A stretch of DNA of 64,000 nucleotides from an uncultured Methanosarcinales archaeon (GCA_964512765.1 CAZEKF010000004.1:15739-79738), one strand, 5' to 3'; counted from the stretch's first letter, positions 16,310 to 46,358 are shown. Numbers and translations are program-made. Notes: a model not told the origin generated them from the sequence alone.

Positions 16310-16354
16310 ATGTATTCGTTATGGAAAACTTTAGCAGTAGTAGTGGTGCAATAG
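16310..16354 (+). CDS. Putative valS leader peptide MYSLWKTLAVVVVQ
   Basis: ATG about 25 nt after TTTAAATA box; GTA GTA GTG GTG run; hairpin and U-tract follow; valS directly downstream. Confidence 0.65.
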   Translation: MYSLWKTLAVVVVQ

Positions 16355-16420
16355 TTTCCATTGGCTTTTTTCTTCTAATATTTTATTAATTATTAGGAAA
16401 ATTATATAGAAGAGAAAGCA
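16321..16420 (+). promoter_or_regulatory. Putative attenuator in valS leader
   Basis: ATGGAAAACT pairs with AGTTTCCAT, then CTTTTTTCTTC; this U-tract can also pair with TAGAAGAGAAAGC near 16407-16419. Confidence 0.5.
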
Positions 16421-16457
16421 TTATAAATATGAAAACAAAGGTGCATGAATATGGAAA

Positions 16458-16505
16458 AAAAAATTAATAAATTTTTTAACCACCAAAAATCACAAGGTGA
16501 TTTTT
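16458..16505 (+). repeat. Double-hairpin element, copy 1 (covers valS RBS)
   Basis: AAAAAATT-aata-AATTTTTT, 7-nt spacer, AAAAATCAC-aag-GTGATTTTT. Confidence 0.55.
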
Positions 16506-16506
16506 G

Positions 16507-18933
16507 ATGGAATTACCAAAGAAATATGATCCGAAGATATCTGAAAAAAAATGGCAAAAGTATTGGGAAGATAAAGAAATTTACAAGTTTGACCCAAAAG
16601 ATACAGAACGTGAGTTATATGTAATAGACACTCCACCGCCTACTGTATCAGGTGCTATGCATATAGGTCACGCTTCAATGTATTCACAGATGGACATTAT
16701 TGCACGTTATCAAAGATTAAAAGGTAAGAATTTGTTTTATCCGTTCGGCACAGATGATAACGGGTTAGCAACTGAAAGATTAATAGAGAGAACTAAAAAA
16801 GTAAGATCTGTTAACATGAAGAGATCTGAGTTTATTAAACTGTGCTTGAAAACATTGGAAGAAATCAGGCCAGGCTTTGTTCAGGACTGGAAAAATGTTG
16901 GTATTAGTTGCGATTTTACATTGTTTTATTCAACTATTAATGACCATTGTAGAAAAATATCACAGAAATCATTCCTTAAACTGTATAAAAAAGGCAGAGA
17001 ATATAGAAAAGAGTCACCTTCTATATGGTGCCCTGAGTGCCAGACTGCAATTGCGCAAGTCGAGTTAGAAGATAAAGAACTAAAAAGTACATTTAATGAT
17101 ATCATCTTTAAAGTAGATGGTAATGATTTGGTAATTGCAACTACACGGCCAGAAATGTTAAGCAGTTGCGTAGCAGTTTTTGTACATCCAGATGATAAAC
17201 GTTACAAAAAATACATTGGTAAGAAAGCTAAAGTTCCGTTGTTTAACTACGAAGTACCGATTCTAATTGATAAACGAGCAGACCCTGAAAAAGGTACAGG
17301 AGTTGTAATGTGTTGTACGTTTGGTGACCAGACAGACATTGAATGGTATAAAGCGCATAATCTAGATCTAAGAATATCAATTACCAAAGATGGTAAAATG
17401 ACAAAATTAGCTGAAAAATACCATGGATTAAACATTGAAAATGCTCGAAAAGAAATTATTAATGATTTAAAGAAAAACAAATTATTGATTAAACAAGAGC
17501 CGATTAAACATACAGTTAATGTTCATGAACGATGTGGGACAGCTATTGAAATTCTTAACACAAAACAGTGGTTTATTAAGTATCTTGATCTGAAAGATCA
17601 GTTTTTGCAGAACGGTGCAGCCATGAACTGGTATCCTAAACATATGAAGTCTAGATTAGATAACTGGATCAATGGTTTACAATGGGACTGGTGCATTTCA
17701 AGGCAAAGACATTTCGGTGTACCGTTTCCTGTATGGTACTGTAAAAAATGCGATACTGAAATTCTTGCAAATGAAAAAGATCTTCCAGTAGACCCGCTAG
17801 AAGATAAACCACCAGTTAAGAAATGTCCTAAATGTAGTTGTAAAGATTTTGTACCTGAGAAAGATGTTTTTGACACATGGGCAACAAGTTCATTAACACC
17901 TGAACTAGCAGGTGAACTAATCAAAGGTAGTCCTAATTATAAAAACATTTATCCGATGGATTTAAGACCGCAAGCGCATGACATTATAACGTTTTGGTTG
18001 TTTAACACAATGGTTAAATCACAGTTGCATCACAAAAGAAACCCGTGGAAAAACATAACCGTTTCTGGCTGGGCTTTGGATCCACACGGTAAAAAAATGT
18101 CAAAGTCAAAAGGTAATGTTATACATCCACAAGAAATGATTGAAAAGTACAGCGCTGATGCGTTAAGGTTCTGGGCAGCTGGAAGCAAACTTGGAGATGA
18201 TCTGCCTTTCCAAGAAAAAGACCTTGTAACAGGTAAAAAAACCATTACAAAGTTATGGAACGCTAGCAAGTTTGTTTTAATGCATCTTGAAGATTATGAA
18301 TATGAAAAACATGATCTTGAAAATATTGACAAATGGATCTTGTCAAAGTTACAGAACTTAGTTAAAACATGCACAGAACATTTTGATAAATATGAATATT
18401 CAAAAGTTAAGTTGGATGTTGACACATTTTTTTGGCACGTGTTCTGTGACAACTATCTAGAACTAGTTAAAGATAGATTGTACAATCCAGAGAAACATCA
18501 CAAAGGTGCAAGAAATTCTGCACAGTTTACACTTTATGAAATATTGTTAACTATACTTAAGTTATTAGCACCGATATTACCACATATAACTGAAGAAATC
18601 TACCAGTTGTACTTTGCAAAAAAAGAAAACAAGAAAAGTATCCATATTTCTTTGTGGCCAGAGTTTAATATAACTTATGTTGATAAAGAAATTGAACAAA
18701 CGGGAGATTATGTGGTTAGTATAGTATCTGCGGTTAGAAAAGCTAAATCCGAGAAAGCTCTTTCATTAAACACTGAACTAAAAACATTAGTGATTGAGTG
18801 TTCATCTTCAATAAGAAAAAATCTCGAGTTGGTGTTACCTGATATCAGTGCAGTTACAAAAGCTAACAATATAGAATTTGGTAAGGGTAATATTGAACTA
18901 AGTAAAGAAATAAAGATTAAAGTTATTTTTTAA
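16507..18933 (+). CDS. valS: Valine--tRNA ligase (archaeal type)
   Basis: IDTPPPTVSGAMHIGH, ATTRPE, WCISRQR, KMSKS; AGGTGA RBS. Confidence 0.97.
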   Translation: MELPKKYDPKISEKKWQKYWEDKEIYKFDPKDTERELYVIDTPPPTVSGAMHIGHASMYSQMDIIARYQRLKGKNLFYPFGTDDNGLATERLIERTKKVRSVNMKRSEFIKLCLKTLEEIRPGFVQDWKNVGISCDFTLFYSTINDHCRKISQKSFLKLYKKGREYRKESPSIWCPECQTAIAQVELEDKELKSTFNDIIFKVDGNDLVIATTRPEMLSSCVAVFVHPDDKRYKKYIGKKAKVPLFNYEVPILIDKRADPEKGTGVVMCCTFGDQTDIEWYKAHNLDLRISITKDGKMTKLAEKYHGLNIENARKEIINDLKKNKLLIKQEPIKHTVNVHERCGTAIEILNTKQWFIKYLDLKDQFLQNGAAMNWYPKHMKSRLDNWINGLQWDWCISRQRHFGVPFPVWYCKKCDTEILANEKDLPVDPLEDKPPVKKCPKCSCKDFVPEKDVFDTWATSSLTPELAGELIKGSPNYKNIYPMDLRPQAHDIITFWLFNTMVKSQLHHKRNPWKNITVSGWALDPHGKKMSKSKGNVIHPQEMIEKYSADALRFWAAGSKLGDDLPFQEKDLVTGKKTITKLWNASKFVLMHLEDYEYEKHDLENIDKWILSKLQNLVKTCTEHFDKYEYSKVKLDVDTFFWHVFCDNYLELVKDRLYNPEKHHKGARNSAQFTLYEILLTILKLLAPILPHITEEIYQLYFAKKENKKSIHISLWPEFNITYVDKEIEQTGDYVVSIVSAVRKAKSEKALSLNTELKTLVIECSSSIRKNLELVLPDISAVTKANNIEFGKGNIELSKEIKIKVIF

Positions 18934-19487
18934 ATCCAGTATCCGATCAAAAGCACAGCAAACAAACATACAATAAGTACAAGTAACATAGCTAACACTT
19001 TAGGATGGAACATAGTAGCACCAAAATTCTGCGCATAGCTGGTTGAACCAACATCACCACCTTCTCCAACTACAACACTATCATAATCAATTGATTCATT
19101 GCTTAAGAACGGCCCAGCTCCTTGTCCAAGTCGCATTGCAATGTTAATAACAAGTATGATAAGACCAATAACTAAAACCCAAGTTCCCATAGTTTTCATT
19201 AATTCTGGAGTGAATTCTGCACCAATAGATATTGTAACAAAGTATGCCATTGTCAAGGCAACTAACATGATGATATACCAGGGTACAGTGTTTTTAATAA
19301 TTTCAACAGCATCTTTAGAAAAAATGAACATCATGGAAATAGCGAAAGCAAGCATTGCGTTAAGACCTTTGTGGGATCCGAACGGTGCTTTTAAGGTTAA
19401 GATGGCATACACTGCTGTAAACACAAATAAAATTACAAAAATGTCTGAAAAATGTCCAAGCAGTGATATGTCAAGTAATGATGCCAT
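18930..19487 (-). CDS. Membrane protein, paralog 3 of tandem family
   Basis: FVFTAVYAIL...NAMLAFAI motif shared with the two neighbours. Confidence 0.75.
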   Translation of the reverse strand: MASLLDISLLGHFSDIFVILFVFTAVYAILTLKAPFGSHKGLNAMLAFAISMMFIFSKDAVEIIKNTVPWYIIMLVALTMAYFVTISIGAEFTPELMKTMGTWVLVIGLIILVINIAMRLGQGAGPFLSNESIDYDSVVVGEGGDVGSTSYAQNFGATMFHPKVLAMLLVLIVCLFAVLLIGYWI

Positions 19488-19498
19488 TTTATGTTAGT

Positions 19499-20071
19499 TT
19501 AATGACTGTCTCCTTTTCCAAGCCATCCTCCAAAGGCTCTATCAAGTGCTTTGTGCGTTTTTTCTCGTTCAGGTTTATCCTCTTTAGTTATGAACCAAAT
19601 CACTAGCCCGAATACTAAAATTGCAACAAGTAGAGATTTTGTTTCAGGGTCACTTAACCATGCGATTTCTTTTACAAGTCCTGCTGATGCAAGAAATGTC
19701 CAACCAACAGCAATGACAGCAAATAATACTACAATTCCTTCAAGAGGTGATCCTAGTATGTTAACTTCTTCACCAAACACACCAATTAATAGTAAAGCCA
19801 TCATTGAAGCGATCATAAGTAATGATACATTTGGAAGTGCAGCATTAATAATTACAACAACGTCGGGACCTCTTCCTATGACGTGAGGTATAATCGATGC
19901 GAGTGCTAACACAAAACTGATCACTGTGTTAAAATTTTTTGAATCTTTACCAAGTATTTTTGATTTTTGCAACACTGCAAATGCAATTGTAAATATTAAC
20001 ATGAACGGTAGTAACACGTCCAAAAATCCGTAGCTTTCAAGAGTTGCAAGCCAATTTGCGAAATATGACAT
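19499..20071 (-). CDS. Membrane protein, paralog 2 of tandem family
   Basis: LLPFMLIFTIAFAVLQKSKILG...NTVISFV. Confidence 0.8.
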   Translation of the reverse strand: MSYFANWLATLESYGFLDVLLPFMLIFTIAFAVLQKSKILGKDSKNFNTVISFVLALASIIPHVIGRGPDVVVIINAALPNVSLLMIASMMALLLIGVFGEEVNILGSPLEGIVVLFAVIAVGWTFLASAGLVKEIAWLSDPETKSLLVAILVFGLVIWFITKEDKPEREKTHKALDRAFGGWLGKGDSH

Positions 20072-20096
20072 TTTTATTAAACCTCCTTTCTAGTAT

Positions 20097-20729
20097 TTAA
20101 TGATCGTCTTTTTTTTCTTCATCTTTTGTTGATTTAGCAACACCAAACGCACCTTCAGTAGGTTTGGCAGTAACAAAACCCATAATACCAACAATAATTA
20201 ATGTTAAAATTAATGCGCCCATGGCACCTGTGTCAAAGTTTCTTACAACATAATTCCATGCATAGTATAACCATGGTGTGCCATTTTTTGTTTTTATAGC
20301 GTGTAAAAATATTGCTAATATTCCAACCAGCATTAATATCATGAAAATGTTTTTATAACCTTTTTCCATTTCAAACTCATCTTTACCAGTATGGAACACT
20401 CCTGCTAATAGTAAAAAGCAAAATCCTAGCAATAATAATATTGTCATGTTTGCGATTGCTTCATTAACAGCCGCAACCAATCTTGTACTGGCAACAACCA
20501 AAAATGCTGTAACAAAAGCAAACATACTGTTGAGGTTCTTTTTAGACATCTCAACTTCGCCACCTGCACCTGTTGCAGCCACAACGGTTTCTGTGCCGAA
20601 AAGCCTAGTTTTTTCAAGGATAGCAAATACTAAAGTAAATATTAATAAAAAAGGTAAAAGAACTTCATATACTCCAATTCTATCTAGAAACTGGATACCA
20701 GTAGCAAAAGGTGACGTATAATCTGCCAT
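20097..20729 (-). CDS. Membrane protein, paralog 1 of tandem family
   Basis: LLPFLLIFTLVFAILEKTRLFG...NSMFAFV. Confidence 0.8.
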   Translation of the reverse strand: MADYTSPFATGIQFLDRIGVYEVLLPFLLIFTLVFAILEKTRLFGTETVVAATGAGGEVEMSKKNLNSMFAFVTAFLVVASTRLVAAVNEAIANMTILLLLGFCFLLLAGVFHTGKDEFEMEKGYKNIFMILMLVGILAIFLHAIKTKNGTPWLYYAWNYVVRNFDTGAMGALILTLIIVGIMGFVTAKPTEGAFGVAKSTKDEEKKDDH

Positions 20730-20845
20730 ATTAGTATAGAATTAGATGATTCTTCCTATATAAATGTTTTGTTTCCCCATATATAGGTTTTAGACGAAAA
20801 AAAGAGTAAATAATTTTATAAATAATATAGGTTTACCATGGTTTT

Positions 20846-21409
20846 ATGAAAGAAATTTTTTCAAAAATAAAAAAAGAAATTGAAAGTAAGGATAAGGTTA
20901 GAGAAGAGCTAATTGTAAATTCCAGGCCAATTATTAAAAATTCGAAACAAGCAATTTATGCAATGCATAGAAGCGCGTTGAAAGAAGCAAAAAAGTTAAT
21001 TGATATTGCAAACAAAGATTTGGATAAGTTAAGAAACATAACTAATAAACAAGAAATTGGTGCGTTTAACGCAGCACTACAAGAATATGCAGAAGCTGTT
21101 ACTTATTATTATTATTTAACTGAACAAAGATTAGTTAAACCAGGTGAGATTAAAGTAGATGCAGAAAACTATTTATTAGGTGTTTGTGATCTTACGGGAG
21201 AATTATCTAGAAAAGCAGTATTTTCTGTTGTTAATGAAAAATATTCAGAAGTTGAAAAAATTAAAGATTTTGTTTCTGAAATCTACAACGAGTTCCTTAA
21301 ATTTAGTTTTAGAAACAGTGAACTAAGAAAAAAATCAGATTCTATTAAATGGAACTTAAAAAAAATTGAAGAAATAATGTATGATTTGAAAATCCGGGGA
21401 AAGATATAA
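20846..21409 (+). CDS. Translin/TRAX family protein
   Basis: REELI...ALQEYAEA...YLLGVCDLTGELSR...LRKKSD motifs. Confidence 0.85.
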   Translation: MKEIFSKIKKEIESKDKVREELIVNSRPIIKNSKQAIYAMHRSALKEAKKLIDIANKDLDKLRNITNKQEIGAFNAALQEYAEAVTYYYYLTEQRLVKPGEIKVDAENYLLGVCDLTGELSRKAVFSVVNEKYSEVEKIKDFVSEIYNEFLKFSFRNSELRKKSDSIKWNLKKIEEIMYDLKIRGKI

Positions 21410-21895
21410 ATGGGTTTTAAACAGGCATTGGAAAAATTACATAGTTCTAAAGAGTACAATGATTGGAAGAAAAAGAATACATATCTTACTTACTGTTTTA
21501 TTATGATATCTCCTGAAGTTAAACAAGAATGGCAAATAGGTTACTATGATCCTGATGCTGATAAAATAACAGCTTTCAGTGTTTCTGATGATGTTGTTAA
21601 AAACCCTGACTCAGAAGTGTTTAAAAAAGATAAAAAAGTTCTTGAACTAGAGCCGAGTAAGGTTAAAATTACGCTTGATAAAACACTTGAAAAAGCCAAA
21701 AAATTGCAGAAAACAGTGTATAGCCAACACACACCAGTTAAAAAAGTTGTTATTTTACAAAAACTTAGTTTAGGGCAAGTCTGGAATGTAACTTATATTA
21801 CTCAGACTTTTAAAACATTGAACATTAAAATTGACGCAGAATCTGGTGAAGTAATAAAACACGATTTAATAGAATTGTTTAGGTTTGACAAATAG
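21410..21895 (+). CDS. Hypothetical protein with PepSY-like C-terminus
   Basis: WQIGYY and WNVTY...IKIDAESGEVI; abuts the translin stop codon. Confidence 0.7.
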   Translation: MGFKQALEKLHSSKEYNDWKKKNTYLTYCFIMISPEVKQEWQIGYYDPDADKITAFSVSDDVVKNPDSEVFKKDKKVLELEPSKVKITLDKTLEKAKKLQKTVYSQHTPVKKVVILQKLSLGQVWNVTYITQTFKTLNIKIDAESGEVIKHDLIELFRFDK

Positions 21896-22023
21896 TTACT
21901 TCTCAATGAATTTCTTTATAAAATTTATTTAATTAAAACCTATATATTTGATTGTAATAGATTTTATAAAGCGCAAAAAAAATAATAAATTTGTTCTTTG
22001 ATTGAATGAGTTGAATAAAAAAC

Positions 22024-22452
22024 ATGGTAGAAGTAAGAGTCTTAAAAACAGATCCTGAACTAACAACACCCCATTACGCGCATACAGGAGATGCTGCTTT
22101 TGATTTAAGGAGTTGTGAAGAATTAGTTCTTGGACCTAATGAACGTCATACAGTTAAAACTGGACTGAAAATGGATATTCCTGATGGTTATTTTGGCTTA
22201 ATAAAAGATAGAAGCGGTTACGCGCACAAGTTTGGAATACATTGTTTGGCAGGAGTGATAGATTCAGGCTATCGCGGTGAGATAGGTGTTGTCATGATTA
22301 ATTTAGGTGACGATGCATTTGAAATCAAAAAAGATATGAAGATTGCGCAGATGTTAATCCTTCCAGTTCCAGAAGTTACTCTTAATGAAGTAGATTCATT
22401 GGACGATTCTGGGAGAGGAGAAGGGGGTTTTGGTAGCACAGGACATCATTAA
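22024..22452 (+). CDS. dut: Trimeric dUTP diphosphatase
   Basis: GDAAFDL, RSG, GVIDSGYRGEI, IAQ, RGEGGFGSTG. Confidence 0.95.
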   Translation: MVEVRVLKTDPELTTPHYAHTGDAAFDLRSCEELVLGPNERHTVKTGLKMDIPDGYFGLIKDRSGYAHKFGIHCLAGVIDSGYRGEIGVVMINLGDDAFEIKKDMKIAQMLILPVPEVTLNEVDSLDDSGRGEGGFGSTGHH

Positions 22453-22476
22453 TTAAAAGAGAGGTGAAAAAGTAAA

Positions 22477-22584
22477 ATGGTAGACGACAAAGAAATTGTA
22501 AAAAATAAAACAACAGTAAGTTATAAAGCAATGATGTCAAGTAAAAAACTAGATTCTTTTTTTGAAGAAGAGGATGAAGAATAA
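22477..22584 (+). CDS. Unannotated 35-aa acidic microprotein with PIP-box-like motif
   Basis: GAGGTGA RBS at 22461; MVDDKEIVKNKTTVSYKAMMSSKKLDSFFEEEDEE. Confidence 0.6.
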   Translation: MVDDKEIVKNKTTVSYKAMMSSKKLDSFFEEEDEE

Positions 22585-22632
22585 GTTCTTTTTCTATTAT
22601 ATTTAAATATAAGATTAATTCTCCCTGGTTTT

Positions 22633-23470: not shown

Positions 23471-23547
23471 AGGAATTTAGATAAAAGAATACTTTAAATA
23501 AATATTGAAAACCTATTTAAACCTCTAGTTAATTCTTTTAGCCATAT

Positions 23548-24394: not shown

Positions 24395-24413
24395 AAATTG
24401 AATATAAAACACT

Positions 24414-35129: not shown

Positions 35130-35161
35130 TTTTATATATTATTTATGATTTACTTTTTTGT

Positions 35162-35221
35162 ATGATTACTAAATGTAGTAACGATAATAATTTCTGTACA
35201 GATGATTGCGGTAGCAGTTAA
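35162..35221 (+). CDS. Putative leader peptide MITKCSNDNNFCTDDCGSS upstream of ppcA-aspS
   Basis: ATG about 25 nt after TTTATATA (35131); stop lies in GCAGT-taa-ACTGT hairpin followed by TTTCTTTTT. Confidence 0.5.
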   Translation: MITKCSNDNNFCTDDCGSS

Positions 35222-35267
35222 ACTGTCATTGAGTTTCTTTTTATATATAATTAATAGGTGAATTATA

Positions 35268-36728
35268 ATGAAAATCCCAAGAGCAATGTCAACACAACAT
35301 CCGGATAATGTAAAACAACCGTTTTTTGTAGAAAATTCTGTAATCGGCGGTGATGATGAGATTAAAGAAGCGTTTTACGCGTTCTCACATCTTAAAATAA
35401 AAGAACAGTTATGGGACTGTGAAGGTAAAGAAGTTGATAACTTTGTTGTTGAAAAATTATTAAGTAGGTATGAGCATTATTTCAGAGAAAATAAAATTGG
35501 TAAAGATATTTTTATTACTTTGAGAAGTCCAAACCCAAGGATTGAGAAAGGTAAAGGAAAGTTATTACTTGAAACATTAGAAAGCATACCAAGGAATTAT
35601 GACATTGCTAAACAGTTTTACGGTGAAGACATTGCACCTATATTTGAAATAACAATACCCATGGTGTCAAATGCTAACGAGATTCTTAGAGTTAAAGATT
35701 ATTATACTAAATACATTATTGAAAAACAAAACAAAATTGCAAATGATATCAAAGTTAAAGATTGGGTTGGCGAGTTTAAACCTGAACAGATTAAAGTTAT
35801 TCCTTTGATAGAAGACAAGGATAGTATGTTAAATGCTGATAAAATTGTAGAAGAATATCTGTCTAAAGCAAATGAAAAAGAGTATCAAAGAGTGTGGCTG
35901 GCCAGGAGTGATCCTGCTTTGAACTATGGTAATTTAGCAGCTGTTTTAGTTAATAGAATAGCGTTCCAAAGATTGCATAAATTACAGCAAAAGTTATCAA
36001 TTGAATTATTACCTATAATAGGCTGTGGTTCTGTGCCGTTCAGGGGTAACTTTCGTCCTGATAACATGCAGAATATACTAAAAGCATACCCAAGTGTTCA
36101 GACGTTTACATTACAATCTGCGTTTAAATACGATTTTCCTGAAGAAGATGTTAGAAAAGCAGTTGAGTTATTGGATAACACACCAAGAAAAGATCCAAGA
36201 AAAATTAATGAAACAAAAGCACTTGAAATTATAGAAAAAACATCTAAAGAATATCAGAAACAAATTATACAAATAGCTCCATTGATAAACCAGATAGCTA
36301 ATTATGTTCCTCAAAGACGAAAAAGAAAAATGCATATTGGTTTGTTTGGCTATTCAAGAGATGGTTCCGGTGTTAAACTGCCACGTGCAATTAAATTTTG
36401 TGCGTCATTATATTCACTAGGTATACCACCAGAATTGTTTGGACTAAACGCACTAGATGAAAAAGAGTGGGAATTTATTTTTGAAAATACAGGTGTTGAA
36501 AAAGATATTAAAGATGCATTGTTATTTTTGAACAAAGATAATCTATCAATACTACCTAAAGACATTCAGAAAGAATTAATGTCTGTCATTAACAATTTTA
36601 ATGTTGAACCAGATCTTAAACACAAAAAGATTACATCAATCATATTCAATGACTATAAAAAAAATAATCTAATTGCGTTGTCAGAAAATATTGAACGAGC
36701 AGCTAGTATTAGGAATTTTTTAGGATAA
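35268..36728 (+). CDS. ppcA: Archaeal-type phosphoenolpyruvate carboxylase
   Basis: IPRAMSTQHPDN, WDCEGKEVD, LARSDPALNYG, PFRG, GLFGYSR, LPRAI. Confidence 0.95.
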   Translation: MKIPRAMSTQHPDNVKQPFFVENSVIGGDDEIKEAFYAFSHLKIKEQLWDCEGKEVDNFVVEKLLSRYEHYFRENKIGKDIFITLRSPNPRIEKGKGKLLLETLESIPRNYDIAKQFYGEDIAPIFEITIPMVSNANEILRVKDYYTKYIIEKQNKIANDIKVKDWVGEFKPEQIKVIPLIEDKDSMLNADKIVEEYLSKANEKEYQRVWLARSDPALNYGNLAAVLVNRIAFQRLHKLQQKLSIELLPIIGCGSVPFRGNFRPDNMQNILKAYPSVQTFTLQSAFKYDFPEEDVRKAVELLDNTPRKDPRKINETKALEIIEKTSKEYQKQIIQIAPLINQIANYVPQRRKRKMHIGLFGYSRDGSGVKLPRAIKFCASLYSLGIPPELFGLNALDEKEWEFIFENTGVEKDIKDALLFLNKDNLSILPKDIQKELMSVINNFNVEPDLKHKKITSIIFNDYKKNNLIALSENIERAASIRNFLG

Positions 36729-36773
36729 TATAGATAAAATATTTAAAATAAAGATGAGTAAGAGGTTAATACA

Positions 36774-39008
36774 ATGCTAAGAACACATAATTGTGGAGAG
36801 TTAAGAAAAAAACATATTAAGAAAAAAGTTACATTATGCGGGTGGACAAATTCGTATCGCGACCATGGGGGCGTAATATTTATAGATCTGCGTGATCGTT
36901 GGGGTAAGACACAAATAGTTTTTGATCCAAGCCACAACAAAAAATCACATAAAGTGGCAGATTCTTTAAGAAGAGAATGGGTTATCCAGATAGAAGGCAA
37001 AGTCAGAAGCCGTGGTGAACTTGTTAATAAAAAACTAAACACTGGTGAGATTGAAGTTTTAGCAGATTCTATTAAGGTTCTTAGCAAGAGTGAAACACCG
37101 CCTATTGAAGTGGATGATAACAAAATAGCAGGTGAAGAACCTAGGTTAAAGTATCGTTATTTAGATTTAAGAAGACCAGTTATGCAGAAAAATCTATTGA
37201 ATAGACATAAAGCAATGAAATCTGCTATGAATTATTTGGATAGTCAAGATTTTGTGCATTTAGAGACTCCAGTATTAATGAAATCAACTCCTGAAGGTGC
37301 AAGAGATTATGTTGTTCCTTCTCGTGTAAACATGGGCAAATTTTATGCATTGCCACAATCACCGCAGTTGTACAAACAAATTCTAATGGTAAGCGGTTTT
37401 GACAGGTATTTCCAGTTTGCTAGGTGTTTACGAGACGAAGATTTGAGATCAGACAGGCAACCTGAACATACACAGATAGATTTAGAAATGAGTTTTGTTG
37501 AAAGAGAAGATGTTTTTGAAGTTGTTGAAGGATTAATGAAATCTATGTGGAAAGATGTTCTTAAAATAAATGTAAAAATACCTTTCCCTAAATTATCTTG
37601 GCAAGAAGCAATGGAAAAATATGGTAGTGACAAACCAGACTTAAGGTTTGGCCTAGAATTTATTGATGTTACAAACCTGATGAAAAAATCTAGTTTTAAT
37701 GTATACAAAGAAGTTATTAAAAATAACGGAGTTGTAAAATGCTTAAAAGTTCCTAAAGCCAGTAAACTCTCAAGAAAAGAAATTGATGAATTTATTGAGT
37801 TGGCAAAGACACACCATGCAAAAGGATTATCATGGATGAAGATTGTTAATGGTAAAGCAGAAAGTTCAATAACCAAATATTTTAATAATAAATTATTAGC
37901 TGAATTAGTTAAGAAAACCAAAGCTAAAACTGATGATTTATTGTTATTTGTTGCTGATAAGTTTGAAGTTGCTTGCAATGCTCTTGGTCAGGTTAGATTA
38001 GCAGTAGGTGAGAAGCTTAATTTAATTAAAGATGACTGGAAATTTGCCTGGATAATTGATTTTCCATTGTTTGAATGGAATGAAGATGAACAGAAATGGG
38101 ACACTATGCACCATATGTTTTGTTCTCCTAAAAAAGAAGATATTCCTAAACTTGAAAAAGATCCAGGTTCTGTACTATGCAATCAGTATGATTTAACTCT
38201 TAATGGTGTAGAATTATGTTCAGGAAGTATTAGAATAACGGATCCTAAATTACAGGAAAAAGTTATGAAAATTGTTGGTTTTTCAAAAAAAGAAGCTTAC
38301 AAACGATTTGGATTTTTATTGGATGCATTCAAATACGGCGTACCTCCACACGGCGGTGTTGGTCTAGGCTTTGACAGGATAGTTGCTTTAATGAACGGTT
38401 ATAATGATATTCGAGAAGTTATTGCATTTCCAAAAAATAAACAAGCGCAATGTCCAATGGACGGTTCTCCAGGTGATATTGACGACAGGCAAATGAAAGA
38501 ATTGCATATTAAACTTGATTTTGTTAAGAAAAAAGATACAGAGGACAAATCTGTGTTTAAGGATATTAAGAAATTGCTTGAGAAAAACAAGGTTAAATAC
38601 GAAGAAATGCATCACAAAGCAGTTTTTACAAGTGAAGAAGCTGCTAAAATCAGAGGAACTAAATTAAGGCAAGGTGCAAAAGCATTGATATTTAAAGCTG
38701 ATGATAAACCAGTCATGGCAGTGGTTTCTGCTGCTAAACAAGTTGATACAAACAAGTTTAGAAAATTATTGAAAGTTAAAAAACTAAGATTAACAACAGC
38801 TGATGAAGTTAAAGATTTAACAGGGTTAAAAATTGGATCCATACCTCCTTTCGGCAATTTGTTTGGTATGGATACGTATGTTGATGAATCTTTAACAAAG
38901 ATACAAGTCATAGCTTTTAATGCAGGATCTCATACAGATTCATTAAAAATGAAATTCGGTGATTGGAGAAAAGTAGTTGAACCAAAAGTAGGTGAGTTTG
39001 GAAAATGA
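36774..39008 (+). CDS. aspS: Bacterial-type aspartate--tRNA ligase (likely non-discriminating) with C-terminal YbaK/ProX-like domain
   Basis: RTHNCGEL, RDHGG, STPEGARDY, LPQSPQLYKQ, GAD insert, PPHGG; extra C-terminal ~155 aa with AKALIFK and GSIPPFG. Confidence 0.95.
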   Translation: MLRTHNCGELRKKHIKKKVTLCGWTNSYRDHGGVIFIDLRDRWGKTQIVFDPSHNKKSHKVADSLRREWVIQIEGKVRSRGELVNKKLNTGEIEVLADSIKVLSKSETPPIEVDDNKIAGEEPRLKYRYLDLRRPVMQKNLLNRHKAMKSAMNYLDSQDFVHLETPVLMKSTPEGARDYVVPSRVNMGKFYALPQSPQLYKQILMVSGFDRYFQFARCLRDEDLRSDRQPEHTQIDLEMSFVEREDVFEVVEGLMKSMWKDVLKINVKIPFPKLSWQEAMEKYGSDKPDLRFGLEFIDVTNLMKKSSFNVYKEVIKNNGVVKCLKVPKASKLSRKEIDEFIELAKTHHAKGLSWMKIVNGKAESSITKYFNNKLLAELVKKTKAKTDDLLLFVADKFEVACNALGQVRLAVGEKLNLIKDDWKFAWIIDFPLFEWNEDEQKWDTMHHMFCSPKKEDIPKLEKDPGSVLCNQYDLTLNGVELCSGSIRITDPKLQEKVMKIVGFSKKEAYKRFGFLLDAFKYGVPPHGGVGLGFDRIVALMNGYNDIREVIAFPKNKQAQCPMDGSPGDIDDRQMKELHIKLDFVKKKDTEDKSVFKDIKKLLEKNKVKYEEMHHKAVFTSEEAAKIRGTKLRQGAKALIFKADDKPVMAVVSAAKQVDTNKFRKLLKVKKLRLTTADEVKDLTGLKIGSIPPFGNLFGMDTYVDESLTKIQVIAFNAGSHTDSLKMKFGDWRKVVEPKVGEFGK

Positions 39009-39223: not shown

Positions 39224-39259
39224 TTACTTTTTTATATTCTCTAATCCAACCATTATGTT

Positions 39260-40204: not shown

Positions 40205-40770
40205 TTGATTGCTATATTTTTGACCTGGATGATACACTTATAGACAGTTCCATCTATAAAAGAATGTATAATGAAGTTATTAGTAATTTAATATCACATC
40301 TTAAAATAACAGAGATTGAATTGCAAGAAGTAATTAGTAAACTTAAACAAGAAACTGGGAAATTAGATACGTATGATTTGTGTAAAAAACTTAATTCAAC
40401 TGAATTATATTATAAACTTCTTGAAAAATACATTAAACACACATACTCGTTAAAAACTAAAAACATACCCAAACTGTTCAGAAAGGTTAAAGATAATAAG
40501 AAAAAAATTGGAATAGTAAGTAATTCACAGGAAAGAACCATTAACTTGTTCTTGAAACGTTTTAATTTATTGGAATATGTTGATTTCACTGAATCAGGTA
40601 AAAAAGATACAATCTTATTCTGGATATCTCTTGAAAAAAAGCATAATATAAAAAAAGAACATACAATGGTGATAGATGATTCTGATAATATTCTTAAAAT
40701 TGCAGAACAATGTGGATATAAAGTATTGAATGTGAAAGAAATCGACGAGCTAGAAATGTTTCATTTATAG
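40201..40770 (+). CDS. HAD superfamily hydrolase
   Basis: IFDLDDTLIDS motif I, VSNS, VIDD. Confidence 0.85.
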   Translation: MIDCYIFDLDDTLIDSSIYKRMYNEVISNLISHLKITEIELQEVISKLKQETGKLDTYDLCKKLNSTELYYKLLEKYIKHTYSLKTKNIPKLFRKVKDNKKKIGIVSNSQERTINLFLKRFNLLEYVDFTESGKKDTILFWISLEKKHNIKKEHTMVIDDSDNILKIAEQCGYKVLNVKEIDELEMFHL

Positions 40771-40896
40771 TCAAAGAAAAAAATTGTTAGACAATTTTTT
40801 CTTTTCTTAATAAGCAAACGACATACTGCTTGTAAGAATAGCCATGTCGTTTACTATATAATAACTTTTAAATATCATATACATATGCTTTTACCT

Positions 40897-41181
40897 ATGA
40901 AAGTTGACAAAGAATTAATAGAGCATGTGGCAAACGTTGCTAGATTAAAATTGACTAATGAAGAAATTAAAGAATTCTTACCTCAATTAAAAGAGATACT
41001 TAAAGCGTTTGAAGAATTACAGCAGGTTAACACAAATAAAACAAAACCAAGTTATCATTCTATTGAGTTAAAGAACACAATGCGTGAAGATATTCCCAAA
41101 TCTTGTTTAACAAATGAACAAGCATTAAAAAACACTCAACATAAAGCTAAAGGTTATTTTAAAGGTCCAAAGGTGGTATAA
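40897..41181 (+). CDS. gatC: Asp-tRNA(Asn)/Glu-tRNA(Gln) amidotransferase subunit C
   Basis: HVANVARLKL, MRED, YFKGPKV. Confidence 0.92.
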   Translation: MKVDKELIEHVANVARLKLTNEEIKEFLPQLKEILKAFEELQQVNTNKTKPSYHSIELKNTMREDIPKSCLTNEQALKNTQHKAKGYFKGPKVV

Positions 41182-41185
41182 AAAA

Positions 41186-41284
41186 ATGGCAAAAAAACCG
41201 TTTATATCTAAACAAAAAATGTGGTTGTTCACAGGATTTGTAGTGCTAATGTATGCATTAATGAAACTGTTCGGGTTGGTATGA
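41186..41284 (+). CDS. Unannotated 32-aa single-TM peptide
   Basis: MAKKPFISKQKMWLFTGFVVLMYALMKLFGLV fills the gatC-cyclophilin gap exactly; stop abuts the next ATG. Confidence 0.55.
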   Translation: MAKKPFISKQKMWLFTGFVVLMYALMKLFGLV

Positions 41285-41836
41285 ATGAAAAAGATAGTTT
41301 TCTTGTTATTGTTGTTAACAATTATAAGTTGTACAAAGGAGGGTTCTAACATGATAGTTGTATTTGAAACTAACCAAGGTAATTTTGAAGTTGAACTAAA
41401 CAAAGAAAAAGCACCAATATCTGTGGAGAATTTTCTTAGTTATGTTAATGAAGGTTATTATGACGGATTAATATTTCATAGAGTAATAAATAATTTCATG
41501 GTCCAAGGCGGTGGTTTTGACCAGGACATGAACCAAAAACAAACCAAAGAATCTATTAAAAATGAAGCAGATAATGGCTTGAAGAATGAAAAATATACAG
41601 TTGCAATGGCAAGAACAAGTGAAATTGATAGTGCAACTTCGCAGTTTTTTATTAACACTGCAGACAATGCGTTTTTAGACAACGGAGCAAGAGATTTTGG
41701 ATATGCAGTTTTTGGTAAAGTTGTTTCTGGTCAAGAAACAATTGATAAAATAAATTCTGTTAAAACAACTACTAAAGGGTTTTATTCAGATGTGCCAGTT
41801 GAGCCAGTAATAATAAACAAAGCATACGTTAAATGA
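41285..41836 (+). CDS. Cyclophilin-type peptidyl-prolyl isomerase with lipoprotein-like signal
   Basis: [35 protein letters not shown]; LLTIISC. Confidence 0.9.
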
Positions 41837-43206
41837 ACTCATTAGAATTCATAAAAAAAGCTAAAAAAGGAGAAATTGATATTGTTAAAAATACTAAAAA
41901 AACATTAGATGAATGTAAAAAAATTAACAAGGAATACAACTATTTTTTAGCTTTTAATGATAATGCAGTTGAAGAATCTAAAAAACTGAAAAAAGGTAGG
42001 TTGTACGGGCTACCAGTTTCTATTAAAGATAACATTGTTGTTAAAGATGTTGAGAGTAAAGCAGGTAGTAAAATATTAGAGGGATATCAGCCAGTGTTTG
42101 ACGCAACTGTTGTTGAAAAAATCAAGAATGAAGGTGGCATTATAATAGGAAAAACACAAATGGATGTATTTGGTTTCGGCTCTTTTAGTGTTAATGTTGG
42201 AAAAGGATACAAAATTCCATTAAATCCGTTTGACAAAACAAGATGTACAGGCGGATCGTCAGGTGGTGGTTCTGCAATATTGCAAAAATTAGAGTTGCCA
42301 ACAATCTCAATAACTGAAAGTACTGGAGGTAGCATTGCATCACCGGCATGTTATTGCGGTGTTTATGGATTATGCCCCACATATGGAAGAGTTTCTAGGT
42401 ATGGATTAATAACTTTCTCAAACAGTATGGATAAAATAGGCATCACAGCAAAAGATATTGAAGAAATTGCTCTAATGCTAGAACTAATTTCTGGTTATGA
42501 TAAAAACGATTCAACTTCAAAAAATCTTCCAGTACCTAAATACACAGAAAAAAAACATTCAAAGTTTAAGATAGCAGTAATAAAAGAATCATTAGGTAAA
42601 GGTGTCCAAGAAGGAGTAAAAACTAATTTGTTGCAATCCTTAAAAAACATAAAATTTGATTATGTGTCAATGCCAATTAATTTCAAGTATAGTGTCCAGA
42701 ATTATTATCTGTTGAACATGTCAGAAACATCTACAAACTTAGCAAAACTCTGTGGAATGAGATACGGTCAACATGATGAATTAAAAGGCAGTTTTAATGA
42801 ATATTTTTCTAAAGTAAGGAGCAAGAATTTTAATAAAGAAGCCAAACGAAGAATAATACTTGGAACTTTTGCACGTATGTCAGGGTTCAGAGACGCATAT
42901 TACCTCAAAGCATTAAAAGTCAGAACAAAAATCATAGAAGAATACAAAAACTTGTTTAAAAAATATGATGTAATAATAACTCCATCTATGCCAAACATTG
43001 CACCGAAATTCTCAGAAATAGATAAAATGACACCTTTAGAAAATTACATGACTGATATTATGACTGCAGGACCTAACTTAGCAGGATTTCCACATCTTAG
43101 TATTCCAAATGGATTATCTGAAAAAATGCCAACAGGGTTATTAGCAACAGCAGATCATTTTAATGAACATAAATTAATAGATTTTGCAAGAAGGTGGTTA
43201 CAATAA
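41833..43206 (+). CDS. gatA: Amidotransferase subunit A (amidase signature)
   Basis: [38 protein letters not shown]. Confidence 0.95.
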
Positions 43207-43991
43207 AAAAAGTTGGATTAGCTTTAGGCAGCGGTGGTGCACGTGGGTTTGCGCATGTTGGTGTAATAAAAGAATTGCAGAAAAATAACATTCCTATTGA
43301 TTACATTTCTGGCACGAGTATGGGAGGTATGGTAGCTGCATATTATGCATTATATGGACATGTAACAGGCATTGAAAACGTAGTTAATACATTTAGAAAA
43401 AGAGATTATTTAAGATTAGTTGATCTTAATAATCCAAAAAAATCATTAATTAAAGGAGATAGAGTAAAAAAGCTTTTAAAAAAGTTTTTTGGTGATAGAA
43501 CTTTCAAAGATACTAAAATACCATTAACACTTGCAGCTACTGATTTGAATAAAGCAACACAGATTGTTATTAAAAAAGGTAGAATACTTGACGCTTTAAT
43601 GGCATCTGGCGCTTTTCCTGGTGTGTTCCCTGTTGTTAAGTATAAAGGTAAATACGTTGTTGATGGTGGTTTATTAGACGCTACTCCTGTTAATCTTGTT
43701 AGTAAAATGGGTGCAGAAGTTATTATTGCAGTTGACCTTTTTTATTTAAGTCCTGTTAAAAGCAAAGAATATAACAGACTATTAGAAGTTATACAAAGAG
43801 TTTACGATATTCTTTTATCAAACTTGTCAACGTATAGTGCAAAAGAATATGGAGATAATATTATAGTAATAACACCTGATGCAGGTTATCGAACAGCAAC
43901 TTTTGCGTTTCACAAAGCTAAAACATACATTAAAGCAGGTGAAGAAGGAGCTCAGAAAAATATTAAAAAAATAAAAAGATTATTGAAATGA
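43194..43991 (+). CDS. Patatin-like phospholipase
   Basis: LGSGGARG, GTSMG nucleophile elbow, DGG. Confidence 0.92.
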   Translation: MVTIKKVGLALGSGGARGFAHVGVIKELQKNNIPIDYISGTSMGGMVAAYYALYGHVTGIENVVNTFRKRDYLRLVDLNNPKKSLIKGDRVKKLLKKFFGDRTFKDTKIPLTLAATDLNKATQIVIKKGRILDALMASGAFPGVFPVVKYKGKYVVDGGLLDATPVNLVSKMGAEVIIAVDLFYLSPVKSKEYNRLLEVIQRVYDILLSNLSTYSAKEYGDNIIVITPDAGYRTATFAFHKAKTYIKAGEEGAQKNIKKIKRLLK

Positions 43992-45385
43992 AATATAATA
44001 AGGAAATTGTAATTGGAATTGAATGTCATATTGAACTTAATACTAAATCAAAATTATTCTGTAGTTGTCCAACTCAAGGTTCTGAGAAACCTAATACTAG
44101 AGTTTGTAATGTGTGTTTAGGTCATCCAGGCAGTAAACCAGTTGCGAATAAAAAAGCAGTTGAATATGCAATCAAATTAGCAATGGCATTAAAATGTAAA
44201 TTAGCTAAACAAGTTATTTTTTCAAGAAAAAGTTATTTTTATCCAGACATGAGCAAGAATTACCAAATAACACAGTATGAAATACCAATAGGTGAAAACG
44301 GTTCAATGGAACTTGCTAGTAAAAAGATTGGTATAACTAAGGTACATCTTGAAGAAGACCCTGCTGCATTGACACATCCTGGCGGGCTAGGTAAAGCACA
44401 GTATGTTTTAGTTGATTATAACAGGTCTGGAAACCCGTTATGCGAGATAGTTACTGAACCAGAACTTAACAGTCCTGAAGAAGCTCGTGATTTCATGAAA
44501 ACATTAGTTACAATACTCCAGTATCTTAAGATATTTGATCCTGAAAAAAATATTATTAAAGCTGATGCAAACGTTTCTCTTAAATCAAATAATTATGTTA
44601 GGGCAGAAATAAAAAACATTACAGGATTTAAAGAAATTGAACGTGCATTGAAATACGAAATTGAAAGACAAAAAGCAGAAGGTGTAAAAAAACAAGAAAC
44701 AAGAGCGTGGAACTCAGACAAAGGTGTAACAACATTGCTTAGAACAAAAGAAACTGAAGAAGATTATGGTTATATTTTTGACCCAGATTTAGTGCCCATT
44801 GATATTACAAAAGATTGGTTATCTAAAATAAAATTACCTGAATTACCAAATGAAAAAGCTAAAAATTATGTTAGTAAATACAAGCTTAAAAAAGAAGATG
44901 CAATTGTGTTAACAAACGATTATTCTTTAACACAAATCTTTGAAAAAGCTGTTAAAAAAGTTGATCCTGTACTTGCTGCTAAATGGATCAGAAGAGAGCT
45001 TGTAAGAGTATTGAATTATAACAAGATAGATGCTTCAGATATGAAACTTAATATAGATGAGTTTGTAGTATTATTAGATTTACTTGATAAAAGGAAAATA
45101 ACTGATAATGTTGCGCAGAAAATATTAGACAAATTAGTTGTTGAGAACATTGATGTTAGGAAATATGTCAGTAAACAAGGATTAGAGGCGGTCTCTGATT
45201 CTAATCTTTTAGAAAGATATTGCAAACAAGCAATTAAAGAAAGTAAAAAAGCTGTTGATGATTATAAATCAGGTAATGAAAATTCTTTGAACTTTGTAGT
45301 TGGTAAAGTAATGCGATTAAGTAAAGGTAAAGCTGATGCTAAGGAAGTTAAAGAGTTGTTGAAAAAAATAATTTCATTGTTGTGA
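43988..45385 (+). CDS. gatB: Amidotransferase subunit B
   Basis: IGIECHIEL, RKSYFYPD, HLEED, DYNRSG.PL.EIVTEP, C-terminal Yqey-like domain. Confidence 0.95.
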   Translation: MKYNKEIVIGIECHIELNTKSKLFCSCPTQGSEKPNTRVCNVCLGHPGSKPVANKKAVEYAIKLAMALKCKLAKQVIFSRKSYFYPDMSKNYQITQYEIPIGENGSMELASKKIGITKVHLEEDPAALTHPGGLGKAQYVLVDYNRSGNPLCEIVTEPELNSPEEARDFMKTLVTILQYLKIFDPEKNIIKADANVSLKSNNYVRAEIKNITGFKEIERALKYEIERQKAEGVKKQETRAWNSDKGVTTLLRTKETEEDYGYIFDPDLVPIDITKDWLSKIKLPELPNEKAKNYVSKYKLKKEDAIVLTNDYSLTQIFEKAVKKVDPVLAAKWIRRELVRVLNYNKIDASDMKLNIDEFVVLLDLLDKRKITDNVAQKILDKLVVENIDVRKYVSKQGLEAVSDSNLLERYCKQAIKESKKAVDDYKSGNENSLNFVVGKVMRLSKGKADAKEVKELLKKIISLL

Positions 45386-46189
45386 TGGGTCTGCCAAATG
45401 ATCTAATCCTTCTTTTTCTCTCCCTAACCTTCCGATCAGTTCTCCATTTTCTTTTGCATTCGTTGTGGCTTGTTTAAAAAGTAGATACAAGAAATCAAAA
45501 TCAATTTTGCTAGCAAGTACCTGTGAATAGGATATCTCATGCCATTCTGTAGTAATTTTAATTCTTCCGTTTGTTAGTTTTTTCTTATCATTAGAAGGAA
45601 CAGAAATATATGTTACTTTCCCATACAATTCTTCAAATTCAGATACTGATAAACCAAACTCATCAACAGTAAAACTTTTTTGATAGTTACTTCTTTCTAT
45701 AGAAACTTCAATTGATTGATCTCCTCCGTTGTTACCATGAATTGTATAATGATTTTCTTCATGAACAGTTGTTGATTCATCAAAAAAATCTAATGGATCA
45801 CCTTCCAACCACCAAGTATATTTTGATTCAAGATGATTACCAAATATATAACTGTTAGAGGTTAATCCAACCATTAATTCTGCTATTAGATTATGCAAAT
45901 ATTCGTTATCTTCTGGTGCTTCTGATGGGTCTAATTCATGAATATTTGAAACTGCAATGGGCAGGTTAGGAAAACTAAGAATATGATATGTTGTATCCCA
46001 ATATTTATGACCTAGTTCTTTTCCTAAACAATACACAACATTTTCTAAAGTTTGTGATTGTAGTTCTTGATGTTGATTAGTACTTCTTCCTATTAGAACA
46101 ATATGATCTGGCTTGGCTAAAAAAGTTTGTTGGTATGTTTCTCCAGCATATTTCACATTTATTCTTAACATGTATTCAGGATCTGGCAT
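45374..46189 (-). CDS. Hypothetical protein
   Basis: 271-aa ORF with AGGTGAG RBS; no confident domain. Confidence 0.7.
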   Translation of the reverse strand: MPDPEYMLRINVKYAGETYQQTFLAKPDHIVLIGRSTNQHQELQSQTLENVVYCLGKELGHKYWDTTYHILSFPNLPIAVSNIHELDPSEAPEDNEYLHNLIAELMVGLTSNSYIFGNHLESKYTWWLEGDPLDFFDESTTVHEENHYTIHGNNGGDQSIEVSIERSNYQKSFTVDEFGLSVSEFEELYGKVTYISVPSNDKKKLTNGRIKITTEWHEISYSQVLASKIDFDFLYLLFKQATTNAKENGELIGRLGREKEGLDHLADPSQQ

Positions 46190-46277
46190 ATTGTCTCACC
46201 TTGCTTCATATTCCTGACTCTACAACGTTATTATACAGAAAAGAAACCATTCATGAAAGAATGAACTTTTCTGTTCA

Positions 46278-46358
46278 TTAAATAATAAGTAGCAGAACCA
46301 AGATAATAGATACCAAGCTAATTAAACAGTTTATTTTGTTTCCTTTGCTAGGTATCAT
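46278..46358 (-). CDS. Putative Ile/Leu/Val-rich leader or small membrane peptide MIPSKGNKINCLISLVSIILVLLLII
   Basis: TATA-like box about 27 nt upstream; followed by competing hairpins and a U-rich tract. Confidence 0.5.
   Translation of the reverse strand: MIPSKGNKINCLISLVSIILVLLLII

Follow-up and report, generated by a model that had tools for sequence, protein, structure and literature searches.

Can an archaeon read its amino-acid supply through the ribosome, by means of short open reading frames (ORFs) placed in front of the genes concerned? This question is raised by a 64,000-nucleotide stretch of archaeal DNA (GCA_964512765.1, CAZEKF010000004.1:15739-79738; hereafter the window, with positions counted from its first letter), for which an initial annotation had pointed out three intergenic small ORFs, at 16310, 35162 and 46358, and had proposed that they belong to a recurring, genome-wide leader-peptide system. 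All three ORFs exist as described, the one at 46358 lying on the minus strand. Here we report that two of them, upstream of the valine--tRNA ligase gene valS and of a phosphoenolpyruvate carboxylase (PEPC) gene followed by aspS, belong to a large set of upstream ORFs (uORFs) with a common promoter, stop and motif design and with cognate specificity that is conserved in relatives. We consider it highly probable that these uORFs are cis-acting leader peptides, in which the short 5' ORF of a leaderless, TATA-driven transcript would carry last codons cognate to a downstream aminoacyl-tRNA synthetase (aaRS) or biosynthesis gene.

Leader ORFs upstream of valS and PEPC-aspS

The valS locus (16279-18933, plus strand) contains the following features, the leader ORF being read from the sequence and the hairpins from folding predictions, those of P1 being minimum-free-energy folds.

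16279-16286, plus strand: TATA core TTTAAATA, 31 nt before the leader ATG (16310)
16310-16354, plus strand: Val leader ORF MYSLWKTLAVVVVQ-TAG, 14 codons, upstream of valS
16321-16364, plus strand: predicted hairpin P1, in which ATGGAAA (16321-16327) pairs with post-stop TTTCCAT (16355-16361); z = -1.46
16358-16364, plus strand: post-stop motif CCATTGG
16363-16419, plus strand: predicted hairpin P2, in which GGCTTTTTTCTTCTA, with the T6 run inside, pairs with TAGAAGAGAAAGC (16407-16419)
16366-16371, plus strand: T6 run
16496-16500, plus strand: GGTGA, the Shine-Dalgarno (SD) sequence of valS
16507-18933, plus strand: valS (NCBIfam NF009687, valine--tRNA ligase, 1105.6 bits; Pfam tRNA-synt_1 and Anticodon_1)

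The Val codons with a putative regulatory role, GTA GTA GTG GTG at 16337-16348, lie together with the stop codon in the predicted loop of P1. At the second locus (35131-39008, plus strand) the bias is towards aspartate and asparagine.

35131-35138, plus strand: TATA box, 31 nt before the leader ATG (35162)
35162-35221, plus strand: Asp/Asn leader ORF MITKCSNDNNFCTDDCGSS-TAA, 19 codons, with 3 Asp and 3 Asn codons
35225-35231, plus strand: post-stop motif GTCATTG
35234-35242, plus strand: pyrimidine/U tract TTTCTTTTT
35257-35261, plus strand: GGTGA of the PEPC gene
35268-36728, plus strand: archaeal-type PEPC (TIGR02751, 593.6 bits)
36774-39008, plus strand: bacterial-type aspS (NF001750, 841.5 bits; GAD domain)

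Lying 45 nt downstream of the PEPC gene, aspS is probably co-transcribed with it. The view that in two cases the codon bias matches the downstream function, Val with valS and Asp/Asn with PEPC-aspS, thus proved correct, and the match goes beyond chance. As a separate observation, the C-terminus of AspS is fused to a YbaK/ProX-type aminoacyl-tRNA editing domain (PF04073, residues 614-733).

Cognate leaders across the source genome

The window comes from a genome of 1.53 Mb in 44 contigs with ~31% G+C (completeness 97.37%, contamination 0.33%), which matches the archaeal small-subunit rRNA model and not the bacterial one, and whose closest valS relatives among named records are metagenome-assembled genomes (MAGs) labelled Candidatus Woesearchaeota, Nanoarchaeia or Pacearchaeota. 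The source is a member of the Woesearchaeota (DPANN), and the labels of the valS relatives fit the reduced-genome archaeon supposed at the outset. Gene calling, done simply from ORFs and codon usage, gave 1528 genes (91% coding), and aaRS genes were found by Pfam searches of the genome and phmmer and named by NCBIfam; these searches did not locate hisS, and tyrS is at the end of a contig. We then applied a fixed rule, at least three cognate residues in the last six codons of an ATG uORF of 6-40 codons, using as background 893 upstream regions of the same genome, which hold 794 ATG uORFs.

Cognate uORFs were found in 7 of 17 aaRS upstream regions (Val, Ile, Leu, Met, Thr, Ser and Ala), against 0.106 expected from the 893 regions (Poisson-binomial P = 1.4e-12), and none of 20000 label permutations reached 7. 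In 300 rounds of dinucleotide shuffling, the 17 aaRS regions scored 0.127 on average and at most 1. For the rare residues, regions that score are essentially confined to the leaders described here (Ala 1, Cys 1, Trp 1 and Met 2 of 893). A further screen, in which a TATA box, a C-terminal run or the post-stop motif was sought at the uORFs of every upstream region, and after which the downstream genes were named, brought out biosynthetic operons as well. Besides the two window loci, the leaders of this genome are as follows.

ileS leader: MTSTVIQIISIIII
leuS leader: MKLELLLMLQ
metG leader: MNMTNHFNMSMMMR
thrS leader: MELNYVDRLSEYILLILNTTTTTTC
serS leader: MKFKTSISS
alaS leader: MRTPAIAAR
Trp leader ..NVNWCWWL: upstream of trpE-G-D-C-F-B-A, the YggS gene (yggS) and trpS
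Arg leader MNTYTLRNSRRL: upstream of argG
Met leader MLNYCLINSKMLMMC: upstream of metA
Thr leader MKIVELLKIILSDISTITVTC: upstream of a homoserine-kinase-like gene and thrC
Tyr/Phe leader MSELTCVNFVDSWLDYFAYFYFYFS (..DYFAYFYFYFS): upstream of the 3-deoxy-D-arabino-heptulosonate 7-phosphate (DAHP) synthase gene
Pro leader MKDIILPPF: upstream of proC-proS
Cys leader MNLGCCC: upstream of an LmbE/BshB-like gene, a 203-aa gene and cysS

Counting the PEPC-aspS leader, operons bring four more aaRS genes under leaders, and the design occurs at no fewer than 15 loci on 11 contigs. The genome-wide occurrence of cognate-enriched uORFs upstream of aaRS and amino-acid genes, which the initial annotation had predicted and for which it had named a comparison with shuffled controls as the check, is thus borne out: the enrichment is far above background here and, as described below, is amino-acid-specific in relatives.

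We also considered that these are functionless uORFs arising by chance in AT-rich intergenic DNA. Short ORFs are indeed abundant in this genome, Leu-rich and Ile-rich tails occur in 20 of the 893 upstream regions each, and several run-bearing uORFs precede genes with no amino-acid link. This explanation is nevertheless scarcely credible for the leaders as a set, given the P value above, the cognate-specific conservation and the promoter, stop and motif design that separate them from control uORFs, and it is the leading reading for the third window locus only.

Several leaders have noteworthy neighbours. A tRNA-Trp(CCA) gene (contig C6:59385-59458) separates the Trp leader from trpE and lies 44 nt upstream of trpE, and the Trp leader, tRNA-Trp, trp operon and trpS may form one unit; relatives that have a Trp leader have no tRNA between it and trpE. 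A 5S rRNA gene (contig C20:9779-9894, minus strand) lies ~100 nt upstream of the Tyr/Phe leader of the DAHP synthase gene, on the same strand.

Conservation and amino-acid specificity in relatives

The valS loci of 40 related genomes were collected and the small ORFs upstream of them listed. Val-run ORFs occupy the same position in relatives (MYNLLKTLIVVVVN, MINVLETVVVVV, MYSLYKTLDVVVC, MYLVSGIFSVVVA, MNRLLKVYMVLVV and MYSIWKTLSVVVAN), with further examples in another family (MICVVVVVA) and in one named record (MNSQVIVVD), and the relatives' Val leaders all have a TATA box at a constant distance. The Val leader is present at 7/12 loci of the family, 1/16 in other families of the order and 1/72 more distant loci.

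We then scored every gene family across the GTDB family of 20 genomes with one uniform rule. A Leu leader precedes leuS at 15/17 family loci, an Ile leader ileS at 14/19 and a Thr leader thrS at 14/19 (16/19 by a looser reading), while non-cognate residues score only 0-2 each in every gene set. Among loci with enough upstream sequence, a Trp-containing leader was seen at all four trpE loci, with 3, 2, 1 and 1 Trp codons near the end, and a D/N-rich leader precedes PEPC at 5/9 family loci. The relatives' PEPC leaders, MITKCNNDGNCSVIDCDNN, MFNNDNNLLGDSY, MTADNDNR and MNKSTKDNNSQ, differ in sequence and share D/N runs (NNDGN..DCDNN, NNDNN, DNDN and DNN). Beyond the family, a Thr leader precedes thrS in 3/27 other families of the order, two of the three with the identical post-stop motif. 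In other orders of the class, a uORF with a Leu tail precedes leuS at 8/40 loci against ~7% in non-leuS sets, and two such uORFs from outside the order, MKALLLR and MRTSLLLR, look like true leaders.

Codon usage bears on what is being conserved. The Val runs of the orthologues use GTA 13, GTG 11, GTT 7 and GTC 4 times, and the Thr runs likewise use all four Thr codons. Since all four Val codons are used, what is constrained is the amino acid rather than one particular nucleotide string. Together with the fixed distance from TATA box to ATG and the in-frame stop directly after the run, this synonymous variety suggests that the leader ORFs are read as codons.

A further conserved feature of the Thr leaders is a peptide segment of the form ..(D/E)(E)F/L-I-L-L/F-I/V-L.. 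(..EEFILLIL..), which stands beside the Thr run and is kept across genera; it could reflect a role of the nascent peptide or a constraint on the RNA.

A common promoter, stop codon and post-stop element

For comparison of their anatomy, 77 leaders were compiled and set against control uORFs. A TATA-like octamer starting at -38 to -24 from the ATG is present in 64/77 leaders and in 51/548 control uORFs, and 42 of these 64 start at -29/-30. This spacing, which is the usual archaeal distance from TATA box to transcription start, would place the start at the leader ATG, so that the transcripts would be leaderless. The leader ORFs have 6-33 codons, and in the 77 the in-frame stop comes directly after the run. 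Between leader stop and gene start there are 27-256 nt (median 72), and a separate GGTGA precedes every regulated gene. The stop is TAG in 40/77 leaders, for instance at 16352-16354 in the window, compared with 229/1528 called genes. Within 30 nt after the stop, CA[GT]TG occurs in 47/77 leaders and in 28/599 control uORFs, and a pyrimidine tract (at least 7 of 8 nt) follows the motif in 55% of leaders versus 19% of controls. The motif is lacking in the Ile class (2/13) and in the Met class (0/4). By itself, the heptamer TTCA[GT]TG showed no enrichment in upstream regions (32 sense, 31 antisense); it is enriched only after a leader stop. A second TAG often opens the motif (TAGTTAGTTCAGT...), which gives it a likeness to tRNA positions 8-19.

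These features also bear on an RNA sensor that would not be translated at all, in which the runs would be 'specifier' triplets binding the anticodon of the cognate tRNA, in the manner of a T-box, and the post-stop motif (TAGTTCAGTGG) would be a D-arm or A-box-like part of a tRNA-related fold. The resemblance of the motif to tRNA positions 8-19 agrees with such a sensor, as do the real tRNA-Trp gene between the Trp leader and trpE and another tRNA gene upstream of hisG. However, no T-box, tRNA-like or leader family was detected at E <= 1 in 14 leader loci, where Rfam gave only three tRNAs, one 5S rRNA and a chance sroH match (E 0.92), and ARAGORN found no tRNA in the 64-kb window, which likewise holds no Rfam family at gathering score. 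Moreover, the fixed TATA-ATG distance and the in-frame stop directly after the run in the 77 leaders, and the synonymous variation within the runs, argue for decoding and against pairing with a single anticodon. We therefore regard an untranslated sensor as very improbable.

Predicted RNA structure and the output step

Taking the leaders as translated, we propose that the ribosome itself reads them, as one regulon covering at least 11 amino acids (Val, Ile, Leu, Met, Thr, Ser, Trp, Arg, Pro, Cys, Asp/Asn and Tyr/Phe). Shortage of the cognate aminoacyl-tRNA would make the ribosome stall on the run, which would lie within a conserved hairpin and the post-stop element (YUCAKUG(G), then a U/C-rich tract) or immediately 5' of them; the stalled ribosome would block the inhibitory structure and the downstream gene would be expressed. 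When the tRNA is charged, the ribosome would clear the ORF, the structure would form and expression would be attenuated. Of this scheme, the ORFs, their cognate specificity and conservation and their common design are observed, whereas leaderless initiation, ribosome stalling, the sense of the regulation and its output are our inference.

Folding predicts helices that include or adjoin the codon runs. The Val leaders have P1, formed by an ORF segment and the post-stop motif, and P2, in which GGCUUUUUCUUCU pairs with AGAAGAGAAAGC; after P2 stands UUUUUAU or UUUUUAC (TTTTTAT/TTTTTAC in the DNA) in 5/9 Val leaders, all of them relatives' copies, and ATTATAAATA in the window copy. In the Val alignment, 70% of cells are paired for P1 (alignment A2) and 96% for P2, the latter almost without covariation, and 83.6% of all cells are paired versus 43-63% when the alignment is slid. 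With MAFFT alignments as input, RNAalifold recovered no more than 5 pairs for the Ile set and 9 for the Val set; these alignments are not structure-aware, and P1 is shifted by one column in two rows. In the Ile leaders a helix that encloses a small hairpin is predicted between the Ile codon tract itself and a GGUAGAGA segment downstream; it has at least 8 bp in 12/13 leaders compared with 28% of shuffles. In the Thr leaders the stop codon lies in the loop of a short predicted hairpin of at least 4 bp in 10/16, compared with 16% of shuffles, with arm sequences that vary between genomes. A T run of at least 5 lies within 45 nt in 67% of the Val leaders and in 56% of the Thr leaders, the background being 31%.

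In three relatives' Ile leaders (L132, L133 and L148) a second small ORF (MVEM.., MIES..) starts with the downstream helix arm (ATGGTAGAGATG or ATGATAGAGAG) and ends 8-16 nt before ileS; the window's own genome does not have it.

What would the output of such leaders be? Because of the motif with its pyrimidine tract, the T runs of the Val and Thr leaders and the arrangement of P2 followed by five U residues, we favour regulated premature transcription termination at the U/C tract as the most likely of the options, with a confidence that falls just short of even.

In translational attenuation, by comparison, the leader would hide the downstream SD or start codon and a stalled ribosome would free the site. 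A system of this kind with a similar architecture (a leaderless small ORF, or sORF, a 3' regulatory tract and many loci) is described for mycobacteria (bioRxiv 10.1101/834739). The GGTGA of every regulated gene, the compact leaders whose stop is only 27-35 nt from the start codon, and the pairing of the Ile codon tract with a downstream purine segment are all in keeping with it. Against it, the predicted accessibility of SD and AUG was unchanged by simulated stalling in 41 leaders, the mean values for free versus stalled leaders being 0.49 vs 0.44/0.50 (Val), 0.57 vs 0.54/0.57 (Ile), 0.44 vs 0.41/0.44 (Thr) and 0.56 vs 0.57/0.56 (PEPC). Furthermore, the segment with which the Ile tract pairs is distinct from the SD of ileS and lies ~40 nt upstream of it. 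We judge this output unlikely.

To the same degree improbable is an output through mRNA stabilisation or processing, where a ribosome stalled near the 5' end would shield the transcript from 5'-to-3' exonucleases or endonucleolytic cleavage and lengthen its half-life. The ermC mRNA of Bacillus subtilis, stabilised by stalled ribosomes, is a precedent. Such shielding needs no alternative RNA structures and so agrees with the absence of a detected switch and with weak folding z-scores, and the stall site would be 30-80 nt from the 5' end in all leaders; it leaves unexplained the conserved post-stop CAKTG with its pyrimidine tract and the conserved helices around the codon runs. What probability remains for the output belongs to something not yet imagined.

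Returning to leader-peptide attenuation with output by termination, we note that a number of results weigh against this interpretation or against parts of it. As to coverage, no cognate leader was found in this genome for argS, glyS, gltX, pheS, lysS or asnS, and no His-run leader upstream of the his operon. As to conservation, the Met leader of metG is weakly conserved (2/17 by the uniform rule, 4/17 with at least two Met), the Ala leader of alaS was seen at 2/19 loci, one of them doubtful, the MRTPAIAAR of this genome being without conservation, and all genomes are metagenome assemblies whose relatives lack statistical independence. As to structure, only 2/15 leaders of this genome fold more stably than all 200 shuffles, and 7/15 have z >= -0.2; covariation in the Val alignment is not significant, two pairs having changed on both sides, which 235/500 shuffles matched. 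The Ile leaders are without a U tract (T runs of at least 5 in 15%, against 31% of background). Constrained folding of seven Val leaders predicted on thermodynamic grounds that P2 forms in every state, with or without a simulated stalled ribosome, and neither full nor truncated Val leaders showed a conserved, mutually exclusive antiterminator. A scan for the bacterial-type terminator consensus gave 0 sites in both window leaders, archaeal termination rules being different, and by our reasoning the footprints of ribosome and polymerase known from bacteria would make a simple decision of 'hairpin then U tract' hard to time. Thus, of the hairpin and U tract that the initial annotation had described, the predicted stop-enclosing hairpin and the T6 run are present at valS, whereas they do not establish a terminator: neither window leader contains a canonical bacterial-type one, the z-scores are mostly weak and covariation is not significant.

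Relation to known systems

Leader-peptide attenuation is a textbook bacterial mechanism, exemplified in enterobacteria by trpL, hisL, thrL, leuL, ilvL and pheL, and by pheM upstream of pheST. The present leaders resemble these attenuators in having a short upstream ORF with a codon cluster cognate to the amino acid of the pathway, in mixed sensing (Asp/Asn and Tyr/Phe here; Thr/Ile and Leu/Val/Ile in E. coli), in hairpins that overlap or follow the ORF with U-rich tracts next to them in some classes and, as in pheM-pheST, in having aaRS genes under a leader peptide. They differ in that the host is archaeal, the promoter is of the TATA type and the sensor ORF, predicted to be leaderless, has no SD; the run stands at the extreme C-terminus, beside a stop that is mostly TAG; at least seven aaRS genes would be directly controlled, compared with one in E. 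coli; and here no terminator/antiterminator pair was identified and no Rfam leader family matched. We know of no bacterial counterpart of the shared post-stop CAKTG and pyrimidine tract.

T-box riboswitches of Firmicutes bind uncharged tRNA directly through one specifier codon, and translation is not needed. The gene set (aaRS and amino-acid biosynthesis) and the signal (charging of the cognate tRNA) are alike, whereas the present elements appear to be ORFs with codon runs that are translated, and no T-box matched. Archaeal protein regulators perform the same physiological task, for instance TrpY of Methanothermobacter, which regulates trp genes by binding DNA at the promoter, whereas the present elements would act after initiation.

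The principle of leader-peptide attenuation is treated in bioRxiv 10.1101/834739 and PMC1183508. Closest in design, according to the former (Canestrari et al.), are the leaderless polycysteine sORFs of mycobacteria, the 'Cys ribulon', which exert translational control through a Cys tract that pairs with the SD. A regulatory tract at the 3' end of the sORF and many loci are common to both systems, as would be the leaderless start, predicted here from the TATA spacing, and the ribosome as regulator, and a Cys-run leader (MNLGCCC) occurs here too. The mycobacterial system is bacterial, serves one amino acid and works by SD pairing, whereas here at least 11 amino acids and aaRS genes are included and the predicted accessibility of the SD is insensitive to stalling.

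A full-text search of a limited collection of papers returned no report of leader-peptide attenuation in Archaea, and a paper on archaeal transcription names, in its abstract, promoter recruitment as the only known regulatory target (PMC8448881). Leader-peptide sensing is thus apparently seen for the first time in Archaea, and the output mechanism is possibly new. We put forward, as a tentative proposal whose chance of holding in full we rate below even, that this is the first ribosome-mediated attenuation in Archaea: a Woesearchaeales-wide 'ribulon' for at least 11 amino acids, comprising most regulated aaRS genes together with biosynthesis operons, in which a new post-stop YUCAKUG(G) and pyrimidine element makes termination or pausing of the archaeal RNA polymerase depend on the leader ribosome. 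If this is true, archaeal transcription-translation coupling would be used for gene-specific regulation, and a coupled ribosome would exert direct control over transcription elongation in Archaea; small DPANN genomes would use the ribosome as their gauge of amino-acid supply; and aaRS genes would be controllable en bloc by leader peptides, beyond what bacteria are known to do. As compact, portable modules of 60-150 nt, the leaders could serve to probe the response of archaeal RNA polymerase to nascent-RNA hairpins, U/C tracts and trailing ribosomes, and they offer an annotation rule for unannotated small ORFs in archaeal MAGs.

The third locus and further observations

The third small ORF of the window lies on the minus strand.

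46358 down to 46278, minus strand: uORF MIPSKGNKINCLISLVSIILVLLLII-TAA, 26 codons, with Leu/Ile bias
46232-46277, minus strand: strong predicted post-stop stem-loop (ACAGAAAAG.TTCATTC...GAATGG...TTTCTTTTCTGT) containing GTTCATTC
46200-46196, minus strand: GGTGA
46189-45374, minus strand: orphan gene of 271 aa

The post-stop hairpin is very stable (-31.8 kcal/mol for a 127-nt stretch, z = -4.19; none of 200 shuffles as stable) and, with the GTTCATTC that it contains, argues against a chance ORF. On the other side, the TATA-like boxes 34 and 22 nt upstream are off the -29/-30 peak, and the orphan gene has no Pfam or NCBIfam family, no usable atlas hit and relatives in 0/19 family genomes. Because Leu and Ile tails are common in this AT-rich genome, the bias of the third uORF is not distinguishable from chance, and its membership of the leader system is unconfirmed. 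Hence the recurring system that had been seen at three loci of the window is validated at the first two of them only.

Outside the set of leaders, the uORFs MVVLKHYPLVVV, MKNRRRTVI, MTKNGKMFNMQQQG, MQLQQLR, MGAGVAG, MNTESTTTA and MHCSTYSSICSA also carry runs; they precede genes with no recognisable amino-acid link or family and were taken as chance occurrences. A Tyr-rich uORF, MSYIYGTYYL, precedes a 331-aa gene and then a gene for a HydG/ThiH-like radical-SAM enzyme (contig C9:5876-8125, minus strand), a family for which tyrosine is a substrate; it has no well-placed TATA box.

Upstream of hisG-D-C-B-H (contig C5:56160-56640, minus strand) there is a tRNA gene that ARAGORN reports as Phe-GAA, or as Ser-GGA with introns allowed; visual inspection would also allow a His-GUG tRNA that carries a 15-nt intron. 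The same locus has two tandem copies of a ~45-nt unit with a small Cys-Ile-His-Cys ORF like MKASNQPGDCIHCR, each with TTCATTGT.

Several synthetases of this genome are enlarged. ProRS (contig C10:26765-28906) has ~240 extra N-terminal residues and TrpRS (contig C6:66823-68610) ~220 extra residues, the class II bacterial-type LysRS (contig C5:64575-67076) carries ~345 extra C-terminal residues, and MetRS (contig C14:28331-31075; 914 aa) has an insert before the tRNA-binding domain. Finally, the largest ORF in the window encodes 2058 aa (7204-13380, plus strand).

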